A stretch of 64,000 nucleotides of DNA, from the IMG/VR virus record IMGVR_UViG_3300044712_000123; one strand, 5' to 3'. The notes under the pieces were generated by a model. The model did no database searches and was not told the DNA's origin. It was given only the letters and a program-made list of their open reading frames with translations. The stretch is from a virus. Its lineage: Duplodnaviria > Heunggongvirae > Uroviricota > Caudoviricetes. Made by a program: the position numbers and the translations under genes. The number at the start of each line of letters is the position of its first letter. The first letter of the stretch is position 1. Of the stretch, positions 577 to 52,009 are shown piece after piece.

Positions 577-838
577 TTATAACTATTATTGTGAAGTCAC
601 ATATGACCGTGCTGATATCAAGCCGGGCATATATAGTTTTAGTTCGCAAAAGAATAGTCGTATAGGATACAATAGATTGATTACCCTTAGCGACAAAGTT
701 TGGCGACAAGGTCCTAAAGGTGGCGTAAAGATTATCAAAGACAGAGGTGCAACATATCACCCTGCTGGATATGTTACTACAGACGAGAAACTAATGAAGA
801 AATTCATGTGGGTCAAACTTCAGGCCCAATCATATTAA
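554..838 (+). CDS. small hypothetical protein with a C-terminal KKFMWVKL motif (paralog B)
   Basis: ORF on the track. It shares a 20-nt near-identical block (aattcatgtgggtNaaactt) with the 3' end of 409..576. Confidence 0.3.
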   Translation: MRRLFVVDYNYYCEVTYDRADIKPGIYSFSSQKNSRIGYNRLITLSDKVWRQGPKGGVKIIKDRGATYHPAGYVTTDEKLMKKFMWVKLQAQSY

Positions 839-1368
839 AGGAGTGTGATATGAACACGCAAGAATGGTTAGACAAAATTACATCAGACAAAGATAAATTG
901 ACTCATTGGCTTGAACGTCAGTTTATCGGTGAGATTACTGCGGCTAAGCGAATTCGCAAACTAGCTGACGAGGCTCCTGAAAAATTTAAACCCGTACTCA
1001 ATCGCATTGCCGATGATGAAGCACTACATGCATTCTGGGTCGGAGAGTTGCTCGTTGCTCGTAATATTCAGATTCCGTTAATCGAACATCCAGAAGATCG
1101 CTACTGGAAGCCTATTCTCAGCGAACTAGATACATTTGAAAAGACTGCGGCAGCAGGCCATCACGCCGAAGGTATGAGACTGGTTCGTATTCGTGCGTTA
1201 GCAGATTCAGACAAAGTGGATAATGATATCCGTGAAGTATTTCGTAAGATTCTACCAGACGAAGAATTCCACGAAGTAGCGTTTGTCAAAATGTCAAACG
1301 AGGAAGCAGTCAAGTATATGCAAGACAAGCATGAAGCTGGTCTTGAAATGCTTGGTCTAGAGATTTAA
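808..1368 (+). CDS. ferritin-like diiron-carboxylate protein
   Basis: Two ExxH motifs about 100 aa apart (DDEALHAF and DEEFHEVAF) plus HHAEG; an AGGAG ribosome-binding site lies before the ATG. Confidence 0.45.
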   Translation: MGQTSGPIILKECDMNTQEWLDKITSDKDKLTHWLERQFIGEITAAKRIRKLADEAPEKFKPVLNRIADDEALHAFWVGELLVARNIQIPLIEHPEDRYWKPILSELDTFEKTAAAGHHAEGMRLVRIRALADSDKVDNDIREVFRKILPDEEFHEVAFVKMSNEEAVKYMQDKHEAGLEMLGLEI

Positions 1369-2120
1369 TGACCAACCACTTCACTAACACTGACGGCTTT
1401 GTTGGATATAGTCCCGAATTCAGAGATGAACTATTCTTTCACGGCAAGGATAGTGAAGTAAACTTCGAAGCCAACAAAAAGAAACTAGGTGATAGTTGGT
1501 ACTATACCAACAACCAAATTACGTACAAAAGAAACAGTCTAGGTCATAGGTCAGGTGAGATACAAGACTTGAACCTAGACAATTATATTATTTGTACCGG
1601 CTGTAGTTTAACCGAAGGCATTGGAGTCGAAGTAGAAAATCGATACAGTAACCTATTACAAAAAGACTTAAACGTAGATGTTTACAACATGGGAGTTGCT
1701 AGTTCGGGAAACGATGTTATCGTTCTTAATCTATTAACTTGGTTAGCAAGAGTAGAAAAGAAACCCAAGTTCATTGTTATCCAATGGACTGATATACATA
1801 GATTCATGACTGATGACGTTCAACTAAAGGGATTGTGGTTGAACACTGAACCAGCAATAGAACAATTTTTTGGATCAGGTGATGAAATCAATTACTTCCT
1901 GAGCAAGTCTAAATACTTGAGAGGTCTATTGAAGACCGTAGTAAATACCCCTATCATTGAAATCCCCTGGTCGTCTAAATTTCCAAACACTGGAAGTCAA
2001 GCAGACACCATCTTACCTAAGACTAATTATTCAGACTACGGAAGAGATTTTATGCATCCGGGGATTGTCACACATCGGCGTTGGGCTGATATGATTGTCG
2101 AAAAAGCAAAACATTTTTAA
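1368..2120 (+). CDS. SGNH/GDSL-family hydrolase, paralog 1
   Basis: Block I TGCSLTEG (GDS-like, Ser retained), block III SGNDV (GxND) and block V DFMH (DxxH). The start overlaps the upstream stop as ATGA. Confidence 0.55.
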
Positions 2121-2139
2121 AAGGAAAAGCAAACCCAAA

Positions 2140-2355
2140 ATGGCTAAAGAAGAAGGTATCAAGATGGATGGTAAGGTAATCGATGTATTACCCAATGCTG
2201 TCTTTAGAGTCACATTAAACGCCGGTCAAACAGTGACTGGTTATATCTCTGGTAAAATGCGCAAGCATGATATCAAGATTCTGTTAGGTGACGTAGTAGA
2301 GATTGAATTCAGTCCATATGACCTGACTAAAGGACGAATCACAAGGCGCAGATAA
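2140..2355 (+). CDS. infA: translation initiation factor IF-1
   Basis: [26 protein letters not shown]...[24 protein letters not shown] is roughly 60% identical by eye to E. coli IF-1. ATG 2140 with an AAGGAAAAG ribosome-binding site is preferred over the TTG at 2095 used on the ORF track. Confidence 0.85.
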
Positions 2356-2978
2356 TGCAGTTTTATGATAAGTTATTAGGCCATGATCCAGACCCTCAAT
2401 TCAATTCAAGAGGGCATCGTTCTAAAGAGATAGAAGAATTGAACCTGCACAATTACATATTATTTGTAGGTGACAATGTAGCTCTTGGGTTAGACAAACC
2501 TGTAGAAGAAACATTCCCTCATATTGTTAGTACAAAAATGAATGTTGACTATTACAACCTGTCTATCTTCAACGGTGGTCTAGACGCAATACGTTACAAT
2601 CTTCTAACTTGGAATCGTATTCAACCAATGAAACCCAGATTGATAATTGTGGCTTCTGAGTTTTTGAATTCATTCATTGTCAGTGACCCAAGTTACTCAT
2701 TTTGGTCAGCATGTGATTGTAATGATAGTAAAGTTATCGAGTTATTTGATGCAGGTAATCATAACGCATTCTTCACAACACGCCAATTATTGGCCGACAA
2801 ATTACTTCGAAACTCAATCAATACACCAATGTACCAAGTTGTGTTGAAAGACAAAATTCCATTGTTTGCAGACTATCCCAACAATATTATACATGATGGT
2901 GATTTAAAAGATCATGCATCGATAGCTGACCAGATAGTCAACAAATTTCAGAAACACACGAGGGCAGCTAGACCATGA
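2355..2978 (+). CDS. SGNH-like hydrolase paralog 2, with degenerate catalytic motifs
   Basis: Homologous to paralogs 1 and 3 (GHRSKEIEELNL.NYI). Block I is VGDNV, with Ser replaced by Asn, and block III is NGGLD. The start overlaps the infA stop. Confidence 0.5.
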   Translation: MQFYDKLLGHDPDPQFNSRGHRSKEIEELNLHNYILFVGDNVALGLDKPVEETFPHIVSTKMNVDYYNLSIFNGGLDAIRYNLLTWNRIQPMKPRLIIVASEFLNSFIVSDPSYSFWSACDCNDSKVIELFDAGNHNAFFTTRQLLADKLLRNSINTPMYQVVLKDKIPLFADYPNNIIHDGDLKDHASIADQIVNKFQKHTRAARP

Positions 2979-3715
2979 AATTCTATGACGACTTTATTGG
3001 TAATGGCGAAGAAAATGTAGTACTACCATTCACAGGCGGTGATTCCGAAAGACAGTTTTTAGAGAACCAAAAGAGAGTCCGCAAAGATTGGTATTACTTT
3101 GACCATCCTATTTCGTATTCCTACAATGAATATGGACATCGTTCTAAGAATATAAAAGACATTGACTTAGACAACTATGTAATTTTTACAGGATGTAGTC
3201 ACACTGTAGGAGTAGGGTTAGAATTAGAAAAAACGTTCCCCTACTTAGTTTCTCAAAAACTAGGGGTCGATTACTATAATATTGCTATGGCAGCAACTGG
3301 TATCGATGTTCTTGAATACAACTTGCTGACTTGGTTTGCAAAAGTAAAGAAGAAGCCTAAGTATGTATTTATCCAGTGGCCAGATCATAGTAGATTTGCA
3401 TCTTATCGAAAAGACTATGACTTGATGCACGAGGTTGGTAGCTGGTCTACTGATGTACATGATCGCAATTTGATGATTAACGGGGAAGACACTGGGTTAT
3501 TCTATGCTCGAAAAGAACTAGCCAGAAGACTGATAACTCAAACAGTAGACGCGCCCATTCACAGCTATGATTACGGTGGTCAACAACCCTACGGCACCTG
3601 GAATCACAAGCTACGTCACATTGATTGGGCTAGAGATTTATCACACACTGGCATAAAATCACATGCAAAATTTACTGATTTGTTGTGTGAGCACATTCAA
3701 TCGATAAATAGCTGA
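2975..3715 (+). CDS. SGNH/GDSL-family hydrolase, paralog 3
   Basis: TGCSHTVG (block I), TGIDV (block III) and DLSH (DxxH). Overlaps paralog 2 by 4 nt. Confidence 0.55.
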   Translation: MKFYDDFIGNGEENVVLPFTGGDSERQFLENQKRVRKDWYYFDHPISYSYNEYGHRSKNIKDIDLDNYVIFTGCSHTVGVGLELEKTFPYLVSQKLGVDYYNIAMAATGIDVLEYNLLTWFAKVKKKPKYVFIQWPDHSRFASYRKDYDLMHEVGSWSTDVHDRNLMINGEDTGLFYARKELARRLITQTVDAPIHSYDYGGQQPYGTWNHKLRHIDWARDLSHTGIKSHAKFTDLLCEHIQSINS

Positions 3716-9787: not shown

Positions 9788-10378
9788 TTACGGACGCTTT
9801 GTTACGATCTGGTCGATCAATCCGTATTCCAGTGCTTGTTGTGCTGACATGAATGTGTCACGATCCATATCCTTCTCAAACTCTGCGTAGGTCTTGCCCT
9901 TTGAGTTGTGCTCGACATAGATTTCGGTTAGTCGCTTTTTCAAGAATGTGATTTCTTTGTAACTGATTTCGATATCAGATTGCATACCACGTGCGCCACC
10001 TGAGGGCTGGTGAATCATGTGTCGTGCATTGGGCAACATGAAACGCTTACCAGGAGCACCAGCTTGCGCTAGCAGAGAACCCATTGAACATGCTTGACCC
10101 ATAACGATGGTATGCACATTTGGTTTGATGAATTGCATGGTATCATAGATCGCCATACCAGCAGTAACACTACCACCTGGCGAGTTGATATACATTGAAA
10201 TGTCTTTTTCGGGATCCTCAGATTCGAGGAATAGTAGTTGGGCAACAATCAAGTTTGCCATTTGGTCATGAACTTCACCTTCTAGCAGAATGACACGATC
10301 ACGTAGCAAACGTGAATAGATATCATAGCTACGCTCACCTTTAGCGGTGTGTTCAATGACGATTGGGACTAGAGACAT
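9788..10378 (-). CDS. clpP: ATP-dependent Clp protease proteolytic subunit
   Basis: Full-length ClpP with Ser-His-Asp triad context ([16 protein letters not shown]) and an AAGGAAG ribosome-binding site. Confidence 0.95.
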
Positions 10379-10404
10379 AAACTTCCTTAAATAGTTGAAC
10401 TGCT

Positions 10405-10433
10405 AGTATAGCAAAAACTATCTAGCAAGTCAA
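10405..10433 (-). promoter_or_regulatory. sigma70 promoter (TTGACT, 17-nt spacer, TATACT) for clpP
   Basis: Reverse complement reads TTGACTtgctagatagtttttgcTATACT. Confidence 0.6.
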
Positions 10434-10447
10434 CTACTTTCGGTCAT

Positions 10448-12019
10448 TTATTTACGTTTGGCTCGAACGCCCGTTTCTTTAGCTTTACGGGTACTGCTTG
10501 GGTTGATGATATCCTTAGCTGCACCAGCTAGACTACGTGTGCCCATACTGTCAGCACCGTCAAGTGCATCCTGAGCTTCACCGTCATCACCATACATGTC
10601 AATATTATCATCATGTTGGGCAGTGTCTGCTAGTTTGAAACTGAAACCACCTTTTGTTGGGTCAGTAGAACCTGACTTAGATTCCAATGTAACCTTACCG
10701 TCCAACTTAGCTGGCCATTGTGTAGTGAACACGATCTTGCCTGCTTTGTATGTTGCATATTGTTGCATGAAGTTCATGTCCAAGATTTCCAACACGCCAC
10801 CTTGATAGTTAGGGATAGCATCACTGTCGTTAACCATATCAACTACAGCCTTCTTGACAAGATACATCAACTTACCACCGTCACTTGATTCACCTTTGAA
10901 TCCCATGTCAGCCCAAAGTGATGCATACTTTCCTGGTAACTTAGATTCTTCTTTGCGGTTAGCTTTGTACATCATTAAACTTTGATCTGCCATCTTCATT
11001 ACTTTATCAGTCCAAGGCAAGAATTGATTGAACTTCTTAGGGATAGCCTTAGGGTTGTATTTGTGAATGATGTTCATACCTCTGAACGGTTGTTCTTTAG
11101 TAGGAGTAGTCTTAGTCATCTCAATAAATTCAACTAAGGCAGCATATTTCTTGTTCTTTCTGATATGATCTGGAATCTTCAAACCAGTCATACTAGGAGG
11201 CGCACCGCCACCTGTTCCCTTACTAGAGATTTTAACAGTGTGTGATGTTGCAGCATTCTTAACTTCGGCGTAGCTATCAGCTAGCTTCTCATTTTGCTTG
11301 CTCGGGAATCGTAGTACTAGATCACCCAATGAACCACCTAGCCATTCTTCGAATTGCTTTCTCTTGGGGAAGCTAGACTGACCATACAACAATGCAAGAA
11401 CACCCAGGTATTCGCCTGCATTATCAACTAGTGCAGTACGCACGGTTTCGTGGCTTTTGTCTCTATAGTCTTCAGGAAGAATAGCACCTTCACCTGCCAT
11501 AATCTGATAAGCAAGTTGAATAGTAACTTTACCATAATCAGTGCTTTCTAGGACTTGGTTGTGTGTAATCATGTCACCGAAGTCTTCTGCATTAATATCT
11601 TGGTCAGTGATCTTAATCTGAGCAGGATTTAATTTGAAAGCAGCTTTACCTTTAGGTTCTTGTTCGCCCTTTTCACTTGGTTCGCCTGTTGCACTACCGG
11701 CAAGTTGTCCACCAAATTCGCTAGTTTTCAACAGACTACCTAACGGGATTACATCACCATCAGTTGTCTTTAACTCGATAGAACCCTTGAACTGAGTGCC
11801 ACCTGGGCTGTTATGTAGTGCTTGAATTCTTTTAGCTTCTCTAGGATCGATGAAGACTTGAACTCCATCCTTGCTTAGAAAAGGCTTGCTTGTAGCAATG
11901 TGTTGGATGAAACTTTCAAAACGACCTGGTCGTTTTAATAGTACACCGGGGCTTAGGGTCTTAGCAGAAGATTCCGAATCTTCGGCAAGAACAGATAATA
12001 GGTCTAATAAATCACGCAT
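10448..12019 (-). CDS. hypothetical 523-aa protein with N-terminal MRDLLDLLSVLAED; candidate propeptide-tagged virion or injected protein
   Basis: No recognisable catalytic motif. Its N-terminus resembles that of the SOD-like gene at 40007 (MRDLIQLLED). Confidence 0.45.
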   Translation of the reverse strand: MRDLLDLLSVLAEDSESSAKTLSPGVLLKRPGRFESFIQHIATSKPFLSKDGVQVFIDPREAKRIQALHNSPGGTQFKGSIELKTTDGDVIPLGSLLKTSEFGGQLAGSATGEPSEKGEQEPKGKAAFKLNPAQIKITDQDINAEDFGDMITHNQVLESTDYGKVTIQLAYQIMAGEGAILPEDYRDKSHETVRTALVDNAGEYLGVLALLYGQSSFPKRKQFEEWLGGSLGDLVLRFPSKQNEKLADSYAEVKNAATSHTVKISSKGTGGGAPPSMTGLKIPDHIRKNKKYAALVEFIEMTKTTPTKEQPFRGMNIIHKYNPKAIPKKFNQFLPWTDKVMKMADQSLMMYKANRKEESKLPGKYASLWADMGFKGESSDGGKLMYLVKKAVVDMVNDSDAIPNYQGGVLEILDMNFMQQYATYKAGKIVFTTQWPAKLDGKVTLESKSGSTDPTKGGFSFKLADTAQHDDNIDMYGDDGEAQDALDGADSMGTRSLAGAAKDIINPSSTRKAKETGVRAKRK

Positions 12020-12038
12020 AGTCTAGTATTTATGCTTT

Positions 12039-12530
12039 TCAGCATTTAAAGATATTTTGATATCTGAGCCAATGCTTTTGTCTATGTGATGTTTTAAGTG
12101 GGATCCCGTATTCTGCTAGTCTATCTCTGAACAAAAAGAAGCTAGGACCATGACTCATTAGTCTATCCTTTCCATCTTGGATTCGTTGTTCACCGATGAT
12201 ATCCCATTGATACTGATGACACATTTCGTGAGCTAATGTAGTGATAAGCCATTGCTTGCAGTACCACTTGTCCATGAGTCGTATTTTACACAGTGACCTA
12301 CGGTAGTGAATCTTTTCGTGCGCACCGTAACAGATTCCCCAGTATTCTCTGCATCTAGGAACTACTTCGAGTATTGGCATAGTCATTACATTGTCAAATA
12401 CATAGTAATTGATTTGTCGATAAAGATTTGAGACCTCATAGTAGTCAGTCCTGTACATCAGTCTTTTTTGATAACTGATGCTAGGCAATGGTGTATCCAT
12501 CATTTCTTCAAGAGAATAGTACTTGGCCAT
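12039..12530 (-). CDS. SprT-like zinc metallopeptidase
   Basis: HEMCH (HExxH) motif in a SprT-like context (TLAHEMCHQYQWD) and several Cys. Confidence 0.5.
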   Translation of the reverse strand: MAKYYSLEEMMDTPLPSISYQKRLMYRTDYYEVSNLYRQINYYVFDNVMTMPILEVVPRCREYWGICYGAHEKIHYRRSLCKIRLMDKWYCKQWLITTLAHEMCHQYQWDIIGEQRIQDGKDRLMSHGPSFFLFRDRLAEYGIPLKTSHRQKHWLRYQNIFKC

Positions 12531-12630
12531 GATAATGATATTTACAAGTTTAGGCTGTGCGTAAGTATGTGTACATTAGAAAAATATCATTGGTTTGTGC
12601 CCACTCTAAATATATGTTTAGGAGACAGAA

Positions 12631-12954
12631 ATGTTTAATTTTATCAAGAGACTATTTGGATTTGGCGAGACACAACAAGCTGAGCCAGTAGCACCCTACA
12701 AAGTAGAGGTTGCCCCTGTTCTAGCACCCGTAGTCGAAGCAAAGCCAGAAGTCAAACCTGCGCCGGAAGTAAAGCCAGAGCCAGTAGTTGCAGCTACACC
12801 AGCGGCAGCTATGACAGCTAAGCCTAAGGCTGCAAAAGCTAAAGCACCTGCAAAAGCAAAGGCTCCGGCAAAAGCTAAAGCACCTGCAAAGGCCCCAGCT
12901 AAGCCCAAGACTGAAAAGCCAGCAACTAAGAAAAATCTTAGAGTCGTAAAATAA
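12631..12954 (+). CDS. Ala/Lys/Pro-rich histone-H1-like basic repeat protein
   Basis: (KAKAPA)n and PEVKP repeats; an AGGAGACAGAA ribosome-binding site. The opposite-strand ORFs 12696..12908 and 12721..13068 are repeat artefacts. Confidence 0.55.
   Translation: MFNFIKRLFGFGETQQAEPVAPYKVEVAPVLAPVVEAKPEVKPAPEVKPEPVVAATPAAAMTAKPKAAKAKAPAKAKAPAKAKAPAKAPAKPKTEKPATKKNLRVVK
12838..12909 (+). repeat. tandem 18-nt coding repeat, about four units
   Basis: gctaaagcacctgcaaaa / gcaaaggctccggcaaaa / gctaaagcacctgcaaag / gccccagctaagcccaag. Confidence 0.6.
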
Positions 12955-12955
12955 G

Positions 12956-13648
12956 ATGCATATAGGTTTTGATGTAATCAGTGATCTTAATCTGTCTCCT
13001 GAAGACAGCTTCAATTGGGAAGGTAAGGCCACTAGCTTGTATTGTGTCATCGCTGGTAATATCAGCAATGACTTGCGAACTGTTAGACAAACGTTATTAC
13101 ACTTGTCTAAGTTATATCAAGGCATCTTTTATATCATCGGAACGTTAGAGTATGAAACAGCTACTGACATACAACAGCGCTCCGATGAAATTTTCAAACT
13201 ATGCGCTACTATCAAAAACGTAGCAGTACTACATCATCATGTAGTCATTATTGATGGCATTGCAGTCGTTGGTGCAAACGGTTGGTATGATGCAAAGCAT
13301 CAACATGCATCTGATTTAGAACTTGAAGGTCACAGACATGAAGACCTCTCATATTTAAAAAGCACACTTGAACGTCTTCAAAGACACTTGGACGTTAAGA
13401 AGATTTTCGTTGTTTCTCATTCTGTTCCAGGACCCGGTTTATACTTCGGTGAAGCTCCTAGTACAACAGAAACACATCTTTCACTAGACCTACTGCTAGG
13501 AGTCGATACTGAAAAGAAGATCACTCACTGGGCGTACGGCACATATGGAAAAGTAGTTGACACCACTATAAATGGCATCAACTACGTTAATAACTCATAC
13601 TACAAACGTAAGCCTTATTGGGCTAAACGTGTAGAAATCTCGATTTAA
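12956..13648 (+). CDS. hypothetical protein, possibly a calcineurin-like phosphoesterase
   Basis: ORF only; weak D/H/GN motifs. It is convergent with clpS and their stops overlap. Confidence 0.35.
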   Translation: MHIGFDVISDLNLSPEDSFNWEGKATSLYCVIAGNISNDLRTVRQTLLHLSKLYQGIFYIIGTLEYETATDIQQRSDEIFKLCATIKNVAVLHHHVVIIDGIAVVGANGWYDAKHQHASDLELEGHRHEDLSYLKSTLERLQRHLDVKKIFVVSHSVPGPGLYFGEAPSTTETHLSLDLLLGVDTEKKITHWAYGTYGKVVDTTINGINYVNNSYYKRKPYWAKRVEISI

Positions 13649-13950
13649 GCCTCTGCTTCTACTCGCACAAGCAATGGGAAGCCCTGATTACGCGCTTCCA
13701 AAGTGACCTCAGTCCCTTTTTGTTCTGCGATCTCGTAGGGCAATACTGCAACTACAGCAGAACCTTCATTATGGATGCTCTCTGTGATATTCATCGCAGT
13801 GTCAGTGTTGTAATTGAAATAGTCGATCAGGCTTCCTACAACAAACTCCATGCTAGTTACATCATCGTTCATGTAAATAATTTTGTACATAGGAGGCTCT
13901 TTAAGAGCAAGATTTGGTTTGATTTTAATTTTTGTTTCAGTTTTAGACAT
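13645..13950 (-). CDS. clpS: ATP-dependent Clp protease adaptor ClpS
   Basis: KEPPMYKIIYMNDDVTSMEFVV...PLL aligns with E. coli ClpS ([22 protein letters not shown]...PLL) across the core domain. Confidence 0.85.
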   Translation of the reverse strand: MSKTETKIKIKPNLALKEPPMYKIIYMNDDVTSMEFVVGSLIDYFNYNTDTAMNITESIHNEGSAVVAVLPYEIAEQKGTEVTLEARNQGFPLLVRVEAEA

Positions 13951-14014
13951 GCGTGATACCTAATTTAGGGTTATGAAAGTGAGTAGCCTTTCGACTACTC
14001 ACACTGCTATTATA

Positions 14015-14458
14015 TTATTTAGTGTAACTGATAGCAATAGTTTTCGGCTTCTTTTCTTCTGGAACTCTACGTTCCAAATACACAGTTAGAATACCGTCAC
14101 GCTGACTAGCGTTTACAACTTCGACATGTTCGGCAAGTGTGAACTCACGGTCAAAGTCTCGGCTGCTAATACCGCGATGTAGGTACTCATTAGATGCATC
14201 CTCGTCCCGAACAATACGACCCTTGATACTTAATAGACGGTTGTCTAAGTTGATCTCCACTTCACCTTCACGGAAGCCAGCAGTAGCAACTTCAATATAG
14301 AAAGTGTCTTCTGTCTGTTTTACGATATTGTAAGGGGGATAGTTTAGGGATTGTTGAGCATTCATTCGTGCAAGTTCGTCAAACATGTTATCGAAACCGA
14401 TACCAAATTTGTGAATTGACGGAATGTCGAGGGAACGAAGGGTTAAAGTTTTTGTCAT
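14015..14458 (-). CDS. ibpA: small heat-shock protein, alpha-crystallin/Hsp20 family
   Basis: YPPYNI, AGF.E.E..I and LERR.PEEKKP match IbpA/IbpB; an AGGAG ribosome-binding site. Confidence 0.9.
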   Translation of the reverse strand: MTKTLTLRSLDIPSIHKFGIGFDNMFDELARMNAQQSLNYPPYNIVKQTEDTFYIEVATAGFREGEVEINLDNRLLSIKGRIVRDEDASNEYLHRGISSRDFDREFTLAEHVEVVNASQRDGILTVYLERRVPEEKKPKTIAISYTK

Positions 14459-14488
14459 GTTTTTCTCCTATAAGCAAGTAATGACTAT

Positions 14489-14512
14489 GTGAGCCCGACA
14501 GTCGGCACTCAC
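14489..14512 (-). promoter_or_regulatory. imperfect inverted repeat in the ibpA 5' UTR
   Basis: gtgagcccgacagtcggcactcac: GUGAG/CUCAC outer stem with CCGAC/GUCGG inner stem. It lies between the TGATAAATA motif and the ribosome-binding site. Confidence 0.35.
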
Positions 14513-14517
14513 AATGA

Positions 14518-14526
14518 TATTTATCA
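14518..14526 (-). promoter_or_regulatory. TGATAAATA motif, candidate promoter element for ibpA
   Basis: Exact 9-mer, 59 nt upstream of the ibpA ATG. Confidence 0.3.
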
Positions 14527-14567
14527 TATCAAATTACGTAAAATATTTAAATATTTTTCGGTTAAAC

Positions 14568-14576
14568 TGATAAATA
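14568..14576 (+). promoter_or_regulatory. TGATAAATA motif, candidate promoter element for the homing endonuclease
   Basis: Exact 9-mer, 62 nt upstream of the ATG at 14639; divergent from the ibpA copy. Confidence 0.3.
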
Positions 14577-14638
14577 AAAGTGTAGTTCGCGGACTTCGTA
14601 CATCCCAACTACTCTAATGCTTACAAGGAGCAATCAGC

Positions 14639-15130
14639 ATGACTATTTATCTATACGTAAAGACCCACAACAAAACAGGGTTAAAATATCTAGGAAAAAC
14701 TACGGCAAAGGATCCTCATAAGTACAAGGGCTCAGGTACATATTGGATATCACATATCAAAAAGCATGGATATGATGTTAAAACTGAAATTATACAAGAA
14801 TGCCTAAATGTCAATGAAGTTGCTGAGTGGGGGATACATTACAGCAACCTATGGAATATAGTAGATTCATCTGAATGGGCTAATTTAAAACCTGAGTCAG
14901 GCGATGGAGGAAGCCCACCTAGAGATGTTGAAACTAAAATGAAAATTTCTGCTGTGATGAAGGGTAGACCTGCCCACAATAAGGGAAAGAAACAAGTTCA
15001 CAAAAAACACAAAGCTAGAAGTGATCTAAAGGGCAAAGTCAGACCTAAAATAGAATGCCCGCATTGCGGACGACACATAGATGAGGCAAATTATCACCGA
15101 TACCATGGTGATAGATGCAAATCAAAATAG
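14639..15130 (+). CDS. GIY-YIG homing endonuclease (Seg-like) with a C-terminal zinc finger
   Basis: IYLYVKTHNKTGLKYLGKT...YKGSG matches the GIY-YIG motif; C-terminal CPHCGRH...H. It is a lone + strand gene between - strand genes. Confidence 0.6.
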   Translation: MTIYLYVKTHNKTGLKYLGKTTAKDPHKYKGSGTYWISHIKKHGYDVKTEIIQECLNVNEVAEWGIHYSNLWNIVDSSEWANLKPESGDGGSPPRDVETKMKISAVMKGRPAHNKGKKQVHKKHKARSDLKGKVRPKIECPHCGRHIDEANYHRYHGDRCKSK

Positions 15131-15340
15131 CTTCTTAGGAAGACTTTGTTCACGCAAGAATTTCTTCCATCTAGACTTAGCTTTGGATTTCTTTAACTTG
15201 CGTTCAGTGGTAGGCTTAACAAACTGTTGTCTGTCTCTCACTTCTTGGAGAAGATCCATATCGGTTATCTTCTTCTTGAATTTACGTAGGGCTTTCTCTA
15301 CGTTACCATCTGTTACAATTACTCGTCTTCCTTTTTTCAT
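15122..15340 (-). CDS. rpsU: 30S ribosomal protein S21
   Basis: ALRKFKKK...L.EVR.R..F.KPTTERK matches bacterial bS21 (ALRRFKR...LAEVRRREFYEKPTTERK). Its start overlaps the clpX stop as ATGA. Confidence 0.8.
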   Translation of the reverse strand: MKKGRRVIVTDGNVEKALRKFKKKITDMDLLQEVRDRQQFVKPTTERKLKKSKAKSRWKKFLREQSLPKKLF

Positions 15341-16542
15341 ATAAGTTCAATGGGTGTTAAAACTTGCTCCCGACTAATATTTATCTTGGTTACGTTATTT
15401 TCACGATATTTCTTAGTGTTGAACATGTGTGGCATCAATACACGCTCGATTTCAGTGTGTAATCCACGTGCACCGGTCTTCAATTTGATAGTGTTTTCAG
15501 CAAGTTGTTCTAGTGCTTCTTGGTCAAACGTAAGTTCAATCCCGTCTAGACTTAGCAAATACTTATATTGGTCAATATAGTTGTTCTTGACACCGGTCAA
15601 AACTTTAACCAGTTGTTCTTTGGTCAAATTATCAATAGAAACTGAGGTAGTGAATCGGCCAATGAATTCAGGAATCATACCAAATTTAGTCAAGTCATCC
15701 GGTGTGACCAGAGTCAAGTCTCCTTCTCTGTTCTTATCTTTGACTTTGGCACTAAAACCAATACTAGAACCATCTGTACGTTTAGCAATAACGTCTTTCA
15801 ATCCGACGAATGCGCCACCTGCAATGAACAAGATATTCTTGGTGTTAATTTCAATCATGTCTCCTGCAGGATTCTTGCGACCACCTTGGGCAGGGACTCG
15901 ACAGACAGTACCTTCAACCAACTTCAATAACGCTTGTTGAACACCTTCACCTGATACGTCACGTGTGATACTTGTCGATTCTCCTTTACGTGCAATTTTG
16001 TCGATTTCATCAACAAACACAATACCACGTTCTGCAAGTTTGCTATCGCCACCAGCAGCATTCAACAGCATACTAATCATTGATTCAACGTCATCACCCA
16101 CATAACCAGCTTCGGTCAAGCTAGTGGCATCCGTGACTACGAACGGAACATTCAAATACTTTGCTACACTTTTAGCAAGCAATGTCTTACCTGAACCAGT
16201 TGGTCCTATGATTAGCACGTTACCTTTAGAGATTTCTAGGTCTTTGGGAGGATTGTTGATTCGCTTGTAGTGATTAGCAATAGCTACGCTCAATACTTTC
16301 TTTGCGCTATCTTGCCCAATAACATGTAAATCCAGATATTCTTTGATAGATGATGGGTCAAAACGTTCATCATTCTTTTGAACCACTTCCTCTACGGAAG
16401 TTTCGTCAGTGAGCAACTGACCGCATAGTTCGATACAATCGCTACAAATAGCAACATCTTCACCTACGATTAATTTTTTTACCAGATCCTTGTGGTTACC
16501 GCAAAATGAGCAGTGAGTTAGTGTTTTTGATTCAGTGGTCAT
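15337..16542 (-). CDS. clpX: ATP-dependent Clp protease ATP-binding subunit ClpX
   Basis: N-terminal zinc-binding CSFCG...CSDCIELC, Walker A GPTGSGKT, sensor motifs and a 401-aa length. Confidence 0.95.
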   Translation of the reverse strand: MTTESKTLTHCSFCGNHKDLVKKLIVGEDVAICSDCIELCGQLLTDETSVEEVVQKNDERFDPSSIKEYLDLHVIGQDSAKKVLSVAIANHYKRINNPPKDLEISKGNVLIIGPTGSGKTLLAKSVAKYLNVPFVVTDATSLTEAGYVGDDVESMISMLLNAAGGDSKLAERGIVFVDEIDKIARKGESTSITRDVSGEGVQQALLKLVEGTVCRVPAQGGRKNPAGDMIEINTKNILFIAGGAFVGLKDVIAKRTDGSSIGFSAKVKDKNREGDLTLVTPDDLTKFGMIPEFIGRFTTSVSIDNLTKEQLVKVLTGVKNNYIDQYKYLLSLDGIELTFDQEALEQLAENTIKLKTGARGLHTEIERVLMPHMFNTKKYRENNVTKINISREQVLTPIELI

Positions 16543-45344: not shown

Positions 45345-45550
45345 TCTTCAACTCCGAAATGTTCTTTAATTCTTCTACTGACAAATGCATTAGGGTCATT
45401 AAACCCTGCAACATCAGCGCATTCTTTTACGATCAACTCAGCAAACTTTTCTAAGCTGAATACATGGGTATGTAATCCAGTTTGTCCCGGCATATGAACC
45501 ATCGACTGTTCTGCGATGTTTTCAAATACTTCACGCATCATGTTCCCCAT
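45341..45550 (-). CDS. EHFGVEE-family small protein (copy 3)
   Basis: LEKFAELIVKECADVA...IKEHFGVEE. Confidence 0.5.
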   Translation of the reverse strand: MGNMMREVFENIAEQSMVHMPGQTGLHTHVFSLEKFAELIVKECADVAGFNDPNAFVSRRIKEHFGVEE

Positions 45551-46380
45551 TCGTTTTTGAACAAAGGCACTTGCAATCTATCTGAATATCGCCAGCCACG
45601 TTTACATGCTTCGTCTGCTACTCTACGTGCGTTCATAGTGTAGATTGATTCAACACCACCGCAAGGCATCAAGTAAACAGGACCTCTGAATCCATGCGCT
45701 CTGTATGCCGCTACTGCTTTGTCTGCTTCTAATGCATCTTCTTCTGTGGCAACAACAAACTTCAAGTAAACAAAGCCCACTTCTTGATATTGATTGATTA
45801 CTGGTGGACAGATTGCTTCTTCCCACTTCTCACCACTGATTGACAACTTAGGACTAACTGAGAACGTGATTGCATTCTTCTCACGATTCATCTTCCACTG
45901 ATGCAAATATGTCTTTAGATCAATAGACAACATCTGTGTACCATTAGTTTCGAACGTCAACTCCTTCAGTTGTTTCATTCTTTCGTGCGAAAGTAAGTCA
46001 GGATACGCTCTTTGCCATCCGAGCAACGGTTCACCGCCCGTGATAACCAAGTGCTCATCCATCCAACGCTTGTGAGGAAGTAAATCACACATACTGTCAG
46101 CAAGAGAATCGGTACTGAGCACAGGACTAAGATGTTTGAAACGAGGGTCCCAAGATGCATAACTATCACAGCCCGTGCTGACAAGCGGTAAGGATTTATA
46201 CTCTGTAAAACTCTCTGCATCAATTTTGTCTCTCTCAACACTCAATTCTCCCTTAGGCATACCGAAGCCGCCGCATGTAAAGTTGCACCCATATGTTCTG
46301 AGAAAGATACTAGGGACTCCCATGTATCTACCCTCACCTTGAATGCTATAAAATAACTCTGAAATTTTTAGTTGACTCAT
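45538..46380 (-). CDS. queE: 7-carboxy-7-deazaguanine synthase (radical SAM)
   Basis: LFYSIQGEGRYMGVPSIFLRTYGCNFTCGG matches the QueE N-terminus; VITGGEP and ETNGT are present. Confidence 0.8.
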   Translation of the reverse strand: MSQLKISELFYSIQGEGRYMGVPSIFLRTYGCNFTCGGFGMPKGELSVERDKIDAESFTEYKSLPLVSTGCDSYASWDPRFKHLSPVLSTDSLADSMCDLLPHKRWMDEHLVITGGEPLLGWQRAYPDLLSHERMKQLKELTFETNGTQMLSIDLKTYLHQWKMNREKNAITFSVSPKLSISGEKWEEAICPPVINQYQEVGFVYLKFVVATEEDALEADKAVAAYRAHGFRGPVYLMPCGGVESIYTMNARRVADEACKRGWRYSDRLQVPLFKNEWGT

Positions 46381-50969: not shown

Positions 50970-51650
50970 TTATTTGCTACCTTTGTTTGCGATTTGCAAG
51001 AACTCTGCACGTGCCGCTGGATCAGTTTTGAAACCGCCACCTAAGCGACAAGTAACTGTACTTGAACCTGTATCTTCTACACCACGTGATTTTACGCAAT
51101 AGTGTTGTGCGTCAATCATAACTGCAACGTCTTCTGTATCAAGGATGAACTGTAGTGTGTGAAAGATTTGTTCAGTCAATCGTTCTTGAATCTGTGGTCT
51201 CTTAGAGAAGTATTCCACAATTCGATTAATCTTGGACAATCCGAGAACCTTCTGCTTAGGAACATATGCCACAGTAGCGAGGCCGTCAATAACGACAAAG
51301 TGATGTTCACAGTTACTCTGGACGTTAACGTTACGTTCCACGACCATTTCATTATACTGCATCTTATTGTCAACGGTGGTACATTTTGGAAACGCTTCAT
51401 AATCTAGACCCCAAAAGATTTCATTGACATACATCTTAGCAACACGCTTTGGTGTTTCGATAAGACTGTCATCGAATAGATCAAGTCCCATTGTTTCCAT
51501 GATCTTTTGAAAATGACTTTCAATGATATCAATCTTTTCTTTGCGGTCTAGAGTGTTTGCTTTTGTGGGTGTCTCGACTCCCATCTTAACTAGATGTTCG
51601 TGAACTTGTTGACCCAATGCTGGATCTGTTTTTGTTTTATTGTAACTCAT
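50970..51650 (-). CDS. folE: GTP cyclohydrolase I
   Basis: ETPKRVAKMYVNEIF, CEHHFV, LGLSKINRIV, RPQIQERLT and HYCVKSRG are identical or near-identical to E. coli FolE blocks. Confidence 0.95.
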   Translation of the reverse strand: MSYNKTKTDPALGQQVHEHLVKMGVETPTKANTLDRKEKIDIIESHFQKIMETMGLDLFDDSLIETPKRVAKMYVNEIFWGLDYEAFPKCTTVDNKMQYNEMVVERNVNVQSNCEHHFVVIDGLATVAYVPKQKVLGLSKINRIVEYFSKRPQIQERLTEQIFHTLQFILDTEDVAVMIDAQHYCVKSRGVEDTGSSTVTCRLGGGFKTDPAARAEFLQIANKGSK

Positions 51651-51709: not shown

Positions 51710-51718
51710 TATTTATCA
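51710..51718 (-). promoter_or_regulatory. TGATAAATA motif, candidate promoter element for folE
   Basis: Exact 9-mer, 59 nt upstream of the folE ATG; it overlaps the groES stop. Confidence 0.3.
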
Positions 51719-52009
51719 TTCTTCGTCAACGATACAAAGAATATCTTCTTCTTTCATCACGATGAAATCTTGATTACCTACGGTAATCTTCTGAGGACCT
51801 GATTGAGTGTAGATAACTACATCACCCTCTTTTACTTCAGGTGTAGCGAAAGTACCATCGTCTAATCTGCGACCTTTGCCTACCTTGAATACTGTACCAC
51901 GTGGCAATTTCTCTTGAGCCGAATCAGGGATGTAAAACCCTGATTCTGTTCTAGTCTTTGCTTCCTGCGGTTTGACCAAGATGCGGTCATTTGCTGGAGT
52001 CAATGCCAT
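51716..52009 (-). CDS. groES: co-chaperonin GroES
   Basis: 97 aa; L.P..DR.LVK......T.SG.......Q.K...G.V..VG.G........P.VK.GD.V......G...I.......V..E.DIL.IV matches GroES throughout. Confidence 0.85.
   Translation of the reverse strand: MALTPANDRILVKPQEAKTRTESGFYIPDSAQEKLPRGTVFKVGKGRRLDDGTFATPEVKEGDVVIYTQSGPQKITVGNQDFIVMKEEDILCIVDEE

Follow-up and report, generated by a model that had tools for sequence, protein, structure and literature searches.

The 64-kb virus stretch IMGVR_UViG_3300044712_000123 (the whole of which we call the window, and which is about 18% of a likely genome of roughly 350 kb) encodes ClpX, ClpS, ClpP and a small heat-shock protein (sHSP) of the Hsp20 family within positions 9788-16542, together with a homologue of ribosomal protein bS21 and a SprT-like peptidase. 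We propose, with a probability of about 0.6 that extends to the mechanism set out below, that this module is a set of neighbouring proteostasis genes conserved in an uncultured lineage of jumbo phages, and that its members are vertically inherited, putatively functional homologues of bacterial quality-control genes. The gene content is known from giant phages and is found here in a new, large uncultured clade. What appears to be new is the compact and conserved 6.8-kb arrangement, the implied coupling of clpX to the bS21 gene, the apparent lack of ClpA, and an hsp20 leader that resembles the ROSE family of RNA thermometers.

The clade gene order, clpX-S21-hsp20-clpS-phosphoesterase-(sprT)-(523-aa ORF)-clpP, is kept in 55-77 of 84 loci. 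Gene presence was scored by tblastn of the window proteins against these loci with >60% query cover, and many of the absences are contig ends. The principal features are as follows, with the number of loci in which each gene was found given last.

15337-16542, minus strand: clpX, AAA+ unfoldase, 401 aa (NF003745, TIGR00382, three Pfam domains); 84/84
15122-15340, minus strand: gene for a bS21 homologue, 72 aa (PF01165, TIGR00030); 74/84
14523-14551, minus strand: inferred sigma-70-like promoter candidate for hsp20 (TTTAAA-17-TATGAT, extended TG)
14453-14514, minus strand: ROSE-like RNA thermometer candidate in the hsp20 5' untranslated region (UTR) (Rfam ROSE_3, RF02523, below cutoff)
14015-14458, minus strand: hsp20, IbpA-like sHSP, 147 aa (PF00011 E=4e-17; phrog_432 E=3e-39); 77/84
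13979-14014, minus strand: TATAAT box and GC-rich hairpin between hsp20 and clpS (clade conservation)
13645-13950, minus strand: clpS, N-degron adaptor, 101 aa (PF02617 E=3.6e-25); 77/84
12039-12530, minus strand: SprT-like zinc metallopeptidase, 163 aa (PF10263 28.5 bits, HExxH); 55/84
9788-10378, minus strand: clpP, serine peptidase subunit, 196 aa, without propeptide (PF00574 E=3.5e-81); 64/84
51716-52009, minus strand: groES (Cpn10), 97 aa (PF00166 E=3.2e-26), 35 kb from the module

Functional residues were located by alignment to solved structures from E. coli, Listeria and Pseudomonas, and residue conservation and internal stops were examined on 40-64 distinct clade sequences per gene. 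No internal stop was seen in any module gene over these sets, and dN/dS, estimated by the Nei-Gojobori method against nearest relatives, was ~0.03-0.2 across the module genes, with synonymous sites saturated. As judged from these comparisons, the genes are intact and under strong purifying selection. An earlier reading of the window, hereafter the original prediction, had placed genes for ClpP, ClpS, the sHSP, ClpX, the SprT-like protease and GroES at these positions, and each is an uninterrupted minus-strand ORF with family support. The profile searches that it had proposed (CLP_protease, ClpS, AAA_2/zf-C4_ClpX, HSP20) all gave Pfam matches above cutoff. Its reservation that the genes might be pseudogenised fell away in view of the lack of internal stops, the invariant catalytic residues and the low dN/dS.

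Phage origin of the module

By PHROG matches, the window encodes a family-B DNA polymerase, an ATP-dependent ligase, an exonuclease, an endonuclease and queuosine-pathway genes. Its DNA polymerase is 49% identical to that of Sinorhizobium phage Phosso (469 kb), 46% to that of Agrobacterium phage Atu_ph07 (490 kb), and 43-44% to those of XaC1, RaK2/K64-1 and CBB. A nucleotide search of the module against 50,697 deposited phage records gave zero matches, so there is no close cultured relative among them. We observed ClpX at 74-82% identity on about 400 IMG/VR stretches, with contigs of up to 350-524 kb. By sequence, then, the window is a member of a large uncultured jumbo-phage clade, with Phosso, Atu_ph07 and the RaK2-like phages as its nearest cultured kin.

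We consider it extremely improbable that the region is host DNA, whether through a chimeric assembly, as the original prediction had allowed, or as a recent host-derived moron without a phage-specific role. GC content is uniform across the window (0.38-0.44), and the exact ClpX protein is encoded on each of two independent Logan assemblies (L003 and L004), as part of an identical module. The module order recurs on about 400 viral stretches, 350-kb contigs included, and collinearity extends across both flanks: 2 clade contigs (L303 and L323) share the window order IF-1 ... w8215 ... g9441 ... ClpP ... SprT or 523-aa ORF ... phosphoesterase ... ClpS. Because these 2 contigs are collinear across the clpP junction, the window is not chimeric at the place where the Logan contigs end. 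All module genes do have close bacterial counterparts. However, the best genuine bacterial ClpX is only 49-54% identical to the window protein, as against 74-82% within the clade, which argues against recent host capture, and in bacterial genomes clpP lies directly upstream of clpX, an order different from that of the phage. A further point in favour of a host origin was a relative with a 59% ClpX match (L202; NZ_JBBAKG010000031.1, 70 kb), which was deposited inside a metagenome-assembled genome (MAG) of Haliscomenobacter sp. Yet this contig carries, in clade order, a phage ligase, g521, ClpX, Hsp20 with a ROSE-like leader, ClpS, the phosphoesterase and an endonuclease, and by its gene content it is a mis-binned jumbo-phage contig and not bacterial DNA. 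In the aggregate, composition, independent assemblies, clade order and ClpX identities effectively refute a host-DNA origin.

The same contig gives a weak hint that the host of the clade is a Bacteroidota (Saprospiraceae) species. A Shine-Dalgarno (SD) sequence is present ahead of 28/63 window genes, an intermediate value by which host type is left undecided, and a tRNA scan of the window gave zero tRNAs.

Some side observations concern the contigs themselves. The 2 Logan contigs both stop ~50 bp past clpP (window position ~9740), and the distance from clpP to the next conserved gene differs by kilobases among other clade contigs, which suggests that the region downstream of clpP is a hypervariable or strain-heterogeneous spot. 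Also, IMGVR_UViG_3300027749_002876 (524,565 bp; loci L050, L067, L294 and L325) contains 2 diverged ClpX modules and 2 IF-1 regions, ~400 kb apart. It probably represents 2 related genomes that were concatenated, and not a single 524-kb phage.

ClpX, ClpP and the putative link to bS21

ClpX scored 517.5 bits against NF003745 (cutoff 359) and 493 against TIGR00382 (cutoff 370.75), and all 3 of its domains were found (PF06689, zf-C4_ClpX; PF07724, AAA_2; PF10431, ClpB_D2-small). Alignment to the E. coli (8e91) and Listeria structures located the C4 zinc finger CxxC...CxxC, Walker A GPTGSGKT, Walker B DEID, the GYVG pore-1 loop, the IGF loop, the Arg finger (E. coli R307) and the sensor-II Arg (E. 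coli R370). These motifs are invariant or nearly so in 64 clade sequences, with IGF in 60 and MGF in 4, and dN/dS is 0.04-0.06. The RKH loop has a bearing on which degrons E. coli ClpX selects; residues 222-224 of the window protein (15868-15876) read RKN, as does Phosso ClpX, and RKH is found in 61/64 clade sequences. Full-length ClpX is uncommon in deposited phages, with a match covering >=80% of the query in 59 of the 50,697 records.

ClpP matched PF00574 at 271.9 bits (cutoff 20.2), and it scored slightly below the cutoff of the strict equivalog TIGR00493 (298.2 versus 308.6). It begins at the mature N-terminus and is propeptide-free. The triad Ser98, His123, Asp174 aligns to the bacterial ClpP triad and is invariant in 50 clade sequences, and dN/dS is 0.03-0.07. 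ClpP-fold prohead proteases are frequent in phages, and the best PHROG matches of this ORF are annotated as head maturation protease (phrog_94, E=1e-52), as would be expected if the protein were a prohead protease and the module served virion assembly instead of regulated proteolysis. We regard this as most unlikely. The ORF is a full-length canonical ClpP that passes the cellular subfamily cutoff (NF001368, 314.4 bits versus 249) and fails the head-maturation model (NF045542, 105 bits versus 120). Its alignment to bacterial ClpP structures runs over the full length, with E~1e-77 (best PDB match 7m1m, E=9e-78), and the neighbours of clpP are clpX and clpS, with no capsid or portal genes. On the NCBIfam cutoffs and the gene context, we ruled out the prohead protease assignment. 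In summary, no motif that an active ClpXP requires is missing from ClpX and ClpP, and the pair is, on paper, a complete protease.

The clpX stop codon and the bS21 start codon overlap as ATGA at 15337-15340, with the bS21 ATG on the clpX TGA. S21 comes after clpX in 74/84 loci, and the bS21 protein is itself well supported (PF01165, E=1e-13; TIGR00030, 52.8 bits, cutoff 28.95; dN/dS ~0.08). The stop/start overlap implies translational coupling of clpX to bS21, a putative link that is new here. In Phosso and Atu_ph07, it is IF-3 that directly follows clpX. From gene order, clpX thus appears to be tied consistently to translation-takeover genes in this lineage.

ClpS and its predicted partner

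ClpS matched PF02617 at 88 bits (cutoff 23), and it fell below the cutoffs of all 9 NCBIfam ClpS equivalog models (best 77 versus 149). On alignment to E. coli ClpS, N34, D35, T38, M40 and H66 are conserved. Over 54 clade sequences, the N, D, T and H residues and the EPP tandem-proline junction are invariant, the gatekeeper Met is present in 48, and the D36 equivalent varies. The helix LPYEIAEQ is likewise invariant, the next residue being K (47 sequences) or R (7); in this helix lie the counterparts of E. coli E79 and K84, which reportedly contact the ClpA N-domain (Zeth et al. 2002). The dN/dS is ~0.055. With the EPP junction and the LPYEIAEQ(K/R) helix invariant, it would seem that selection maintains an interaction with a ClpA/ClpC-type partner. 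ClpS is rare in deposited phages (17/50,697 records). In the bacterial system, it docks on the ClpA N-domain and not on ClpX, its N-terminal extension enters the ClpA pore, and it promotes N-degron degradation by ClpA while inhibiting the degradation of ssrA-tagged substrates (PMC9663308). The suggestion in the original prediction that ClpS implies N-degron targeting is therefore reasonable, with the pocket residues conserved, provided that the route is a ClpA-type unfoldase and not phage ClpXP.

We did not find ClpA or ClpC in the window, where a ClpA query from Atu_ph07 matched only the ClpX AAA+ domain, at 22% identity. In 80 related loci, the 10 kb about the module likewise gave no ClpA. 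In sister jumbo-phage lineages IF-1 lies ~1.2 kb upstream of ClpA (for example in L090, L104, L127 and L172), and for this reason we also examined the IF-1 neighbourhood; in 80 further clade loci, the 10 kb around IF-1 contained no ClpA either. In addition, 3 IMG/VR scans for ClpA, yielding more than 190 loci, placed none on the 8 clade contigs of 230-524 kb, among the matches listed; one of them, an alignment-based scan, missed known ClpA loci and so does not prove absence. We think it probable, on balance, that the partner of ClpS is a host ClpA or ClpC; a phage ClpA at a distance is a possible but less favoured partner.

The hsp20 leader

Hsp20 matched PF00011 at 62.6 bits (cutoff 20.8) over an alpha-crystallin domain, with a C-terminal I-x-I (I141-x-I143) that is invariant in the clade, and its dN/dS is 0.1-0.2. 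The original prediction had named this protein IbpA. Membership of the Hsp20 family (PF00011, E=4e-17) holds, but the IbpA equivalog NF008013 was matched at only 110 bits, short of its cutoff of 212, and by these scores the product is an Hsp20-family, IbpA-like sHSP and not an ortholog of enterobacterial IbpA.

The 5' UTR of hsp20 matches the full ROSE_3 (RF02523) model, ending at the AUG, with 24.1 bits, E=0.13 and a cutoff of 43; 2 other clade loci (L014 and L057) each gave a 27.7-bit match at the same position. The core of hairpin 1, GAUGCCGA..UCGGGUC with a bulged G, follows the ROSE_3 consensus almost base for base. In hairpin 2, CUUGCU pairs with the AGGAG Shine-Dalgarno sequence and leaves a central G unpaired, at the bulge position in the model alignment, and a GUCAU/AUGAC helix encloses the hsp20 start codon. 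The element is present in 75/77 clade hsp20 loci, including the distant L202, and in 50 distinct sequences; in these 75 loci CUUGCU...AGGAG stands immediately before the AUG, essentially invariant over the 50 sequences while its flanks vary. Covariation was measured on a 32-sequence alignment. Hairpin 1 was 99.7% paired, with compensatory double changes in 7/9 pairs (75 cells) and a covariation value of 0.705, compared with 0.27 for shuffled alignments (0/500 reach the observed value), and slid registers paired at 14-48%. The leader fold has a z-score of -3.1. Thus we regard the hsp20 leader as a candidate ROSE-like thermometer, which would be new for phages in the literature searched. No report of a phage-borne ROSE element was found there, which is not proof of novelty. 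The Phosso sHSP leader gave no ROSE match even at E up to 1.

Putative promoter elements accompany the leader. A conserved TA(T/G)AATAAATA box lies just 5' of hairpin 1 in clade members, and the sequence TTTAAA-17-TATGAT at 14523-14551 is the candidate hsp20 promoter. Almost all of 53 distinct clade sequences also have a TATAAT box right after the hsp20 stop codon and, between this box and clpS, a GC-rich hairpin whose sequence covaries; a consensus scan listed TTGCTA-17-TATAAT at this location. The latter element could be a promoter with a 5' stem-loop, or a terminator. Its layout mirrors the one ahead of hsp20, which suggests a clade architecture in which each gene has a promoter and 5' stem-loop of its own.

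SprT-like peptidase and GroES

The match of the SprT-like protein to PF10263 is marginal (28.5 bits, cutoff 25.6), and its HExxH residues (H101, E102 and H105) are invariant in 40 clade sequences, with dN/dS of 0.1-0.2. GroES is a canonical Cpn10 by sequence. GroES requires GroEL, and an sHSP holdase needs ATP-dependent partners of the DnaK/ClpB type for client release and refolding. Hence the view in the original prediction of a self-contained toolkit applies to ClpX plus ClpP; it does not extend to GroES, to the sHSP, or to ClpS, which needs a ClpA/ClpC that was found neither in the window nor in the related loci.

Proposed working of the module

In the mechanism that we propose, phage ClpX and ClpP would assemble as a phage ClpXP, possibly mixed with host subunits, and would degrade specific phage or host proteins during infection. 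ClpS, for which ClpX is not usable, would dock on a ClpA/ClpC-type unfoldase, most likely that of the host because none was found nearby, and would turn this enzyme from its usual clients to N-degron substrates. As a holdase, the sHSP would bind aggregation-prone proteins that are produced in large amounts in late infection, and the ROSE-type thermometer would mask the hsp20 Shine-Dalgarno sequence and start codon at low temperature, thereby gating translation. GroES would recruit host GroEL, as does T4 gp31, and the clpX-bS21 coupling would tie the module to phage remodelling of host ribosomes. The whole set may thus support, and possibly steer, proteostasis during the making of a very large virion. 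A bolder version is that of a temperature-sensing virus stress module, in which the ROSE element gates the sHSP, ClpXP is co-translated with a ribosomal protein, and ClpS without a phage ClpA commandeers host ClpAP to N-degrons; we put this forward only tentatively, and think it rather doubtful. Neither a direct temperature input into a lytic phage programme nor an adaptor-based hijack of a host protease is reported for phages in the literature searched.

A number of our observations count against the mechanism as we propose it. With regard to ClpS, every cultured phage with a ClpS match (Phosso, the PA5oct group and Vibrio 2.275.O) encodes ClpA far from clpS, as does Atu_ph07 (PMC6102473). 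With 64 kb of ~350 kb visible, a phage ClpA may lie outside the window. The system could in that case be fully phage-autonomous, with ClpA, and perhaps ClpB and DnaJ, encoded elsewhere in the genome, and with ClpS serving a phage ClpAP built on the same phage ClpP. Most Rak2-like phages have kept a ClpA (PMC6102473), and the window DNA polymerase groups with those phages, in agreement with such an arrangement, but ClpA was not located in the window, in the 10 kb about the module and IF-1, or, among the matches listed, on the long IMG/VR contigs. We hold full autonomy to be possible, though on the unlikely side.

With regard to the leader, the ROSE_3 gathering cutoff was reached in none of the loci tested (5 clade loci and Phosso). 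Hairpin 2, the would-be temperature sensor, is invariant, so that covariation is uninformative for it, though consistent with constraint. In a ViennaRNA nearest-neighbour series from 10 to 50 C, accessibility of the Shine-Dalgarno sequence was flat, with no melting transition. A promoter and terminator consensus scan of the module gave counts equal to the shuffled expectation, and we used it only as weak support for the 2 TATAAT boxes. There is also a weak hint from the host assignment: a Bacteroidota host, if real, would make SD-dependent regulation unexpected.

The sub-threshold scores, the flat temperature series and the similar box-and-hairpin layout ahead of clpS would all fit a generic 5' stem-loop with a role in mRNA stability or processing, the ROSE likeness being coincidental or a fossil of gene capture. 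The near identity of the hairpin 1 core to the ROSE_3 consensus argues for more than chance, and an anti-SD CUUGCU and SD AGGAG that are essentially invariant in 50 sequences amid varying flanks are unexpected for a fossil. Melting of ROSE elements relies on non-canonical pairs, which nearest-neighbour models do not capture, and for this reason we judged the flat series to be uninformative. Also, the leader architecture equals that of the validated 61-nt Pseudomonas ibpA element (PMC13104619). We therefore favour a ROSE-like thermometer, and rate the generic stem-loop as a rather unlikely explanation.

Comparison with known systems

The original prediction had called this gene set unusual, which was overstated, as comparable content is published for Atu_ph07 (PMC6102473), in a jumbo-phage survey (PMC7824862) and among bS21 neighbours (PMC9723584). 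Atu_ph07 encodes 7 Clp-family proteins plus Hsp20 and DnaJ, with ClpX as gp2, ClpA as gp292, ClpB as gp492, ClpP as gp676 and ClpS as gp708 (PMC6102473). In their survey of 224 jumbo phages, Iyer et al. found ClpP, ClpS, SprT-like, Hsp10, Hsp20, ClpA and ClpX in the same phage group, and predicted that jumbo-phage ClpS feeds host ClpAP (PMC7824862). In the neighbourhood of phage bS21, up to 10 genes away, Chen et al. (2022) counted Hsp20 (n=127) and 2 Clp protease families (n=50 and 47), and they remarked on chaperones and Clp protease in bS21 phages from freshwater (PMC9723584).

Atu_ph07 and Phosso (Rak2-like, 'group 2.2') resemble the window in DNA polymerase lineage (46-49% identity), in ClpX (52-53%), and in having ClpP, Hsp20, S21 and ClpS (Phosso by our search; Atu_ph07 per PMC6102473). 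All have a translation gene directly after clpX, IF-3 there and S21 here, and in Phosso the sHSP, TK and ClpS genes are adjacent. In contrast, the Atu_ph07 genes are scattered (PMC6102473), whereas those of the window are packed into 6.8 kb in a conserved order. ClpA, which both cultured phages encode, was not found here, and neither were the ClpB and DnaJ of Atu_ph07; and the Phosso sHSP leader differs from that of the clade in lacking a ROSE match.

Compared with bacterial ClpXP and ClpS-ClpAP of E. coli, the phage ClpX, ClpP and ClpS have lost none of their catalytic and interaction motifs, but the order differs from the bacterial clpP-clpX operon and clpS-clpA pair, with no ClpA seen. Further differences are the propeptide-free ClpP, RKN in place of RKH in ClpX, and a ClpS that scores under the NCBIfam equivalog cutoffs.

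The P. aeruginosa ibpA thermometer, 61 nt long and open at 42 C but closed at 25 C, has 2 loops and a U(U/C)GCU anti-SD with an unpaired central G (PMC13104619; Krajewski et al. 2013, cited therein). On that description, the phage leader shares with the Pseudomonas ROSE element a length of ~61-62 nt, 2 hairpins of which the second occludes the SD sequence by such an anti-SD with its unpaired G, and location in the 5' UTR of an ibpA-type sHSP gene. It differs in being phage-encoded, in scoring 24-28 bits against a cutoff of 43, and in a shorter hairpin 2 loop.

The bS21 phages of freshwater Bacteroidetes (PMC9723584) are similarly large and carry bS21, chaperones and Clp protease. In the 5 clades of that study, bS21 lies among terminase, capsid and prohead protease genes, whereas here it is apparently expression-linked to clpX in a proteostasis cluster. 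Like T4 gp31, the GroES described here is a Cpn10 homologue encoded by a phage, presumably with host GroEL as its partner; yet gp31 is a divergent analogue, and the window protein is a canonical Cpn10 encoded 35 kb from the Clp cluster.

Other genes of the window

The interval contains several genes that the original prediction had missed, namely those for bS21 (above), a homing endonuclease, a metallophosphoesterase, an Ala/Pro/Lys-rich ORF and a 523-aa protein. These neighbouring features, with locus counts scored as before, and the IF-1 homologue are listed below.

14639-15130, plus strand: homing endonuclease-like ORF, 163 aa (phrog_314 E=1.4e-11); 5/84
12956-13648, plus strand: metallophosphoesterase-like ORF, 230 aa, convergent with clpS (phrog_1649 E=1.2e-7); 76/84
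12631-12954, plus strand: Ala/Pro/Lys-rich ORF, 107 aa, low complexity, with KPAPEVKP and AKAPAKAKAP repeats; 3/84
10448-12019, minus strand: conserved phage protein, 523 aa, function unassigned; 26/84
2095-2355, plus strand: IF-1 homologue (PF01176 E=3.8e-22)

Beyond the exact copies in L003 and L004, the homing endonuclease was matched by tblastn in only 3/80 related clade loci. It lies on the strand opposite to its neighbours S21 and hsp20, has the look of a mobile element that was inserted recently, and would not be a functional part of the module. The Ala/Pro/Lys-rich ORF was found, beyond the same 2 exact module copies, in a single related locus (L075). The metallophosphoesterase-like ORF keeps its position across the clade.

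Elsewhere in the window, genes for a QueE-like radical SAM protein (45538-46380, minus strand) and GTP cyclohydrolase I (50970-51650, minus strand) suggest 7-deazaguanine (queuosine or archaeosine-type) modification of DNA or tRNA. IF-1 is flanked by 3 apparent paralogues with weak DUF6473 matches (1368-2120, 2355-2978 and 2975-3715, plus strand), and a rubrerythrin-like ORF lies at 808-1368 (plus strand).

Significance

Taken alone, the gene content is an incremental finding: the known jumbo phages with genes for Clp proteases and chaperones are joined by one more clade, which is large, uncultured and abundant in the environment. Phosso and Atu_ph07 are cultivable relatives in which the questions about ClpX and ClpS can be addressed. 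A ROSE-like thermometer on a phage heat-shock gene, if true, would make translation the level at which a virus directly senses temperature, and ClpS without an apparent phage ClpA would, if that too is true, be a concrete case of a phage adaptor that redirects a host AAA+ protease. Finally, the putative clpX-bS21 coupling, mirrored by the clpX-IF3 adjacency in cultured kin, would connect proteolysis with the ribosome-takeover genes of huge phages.

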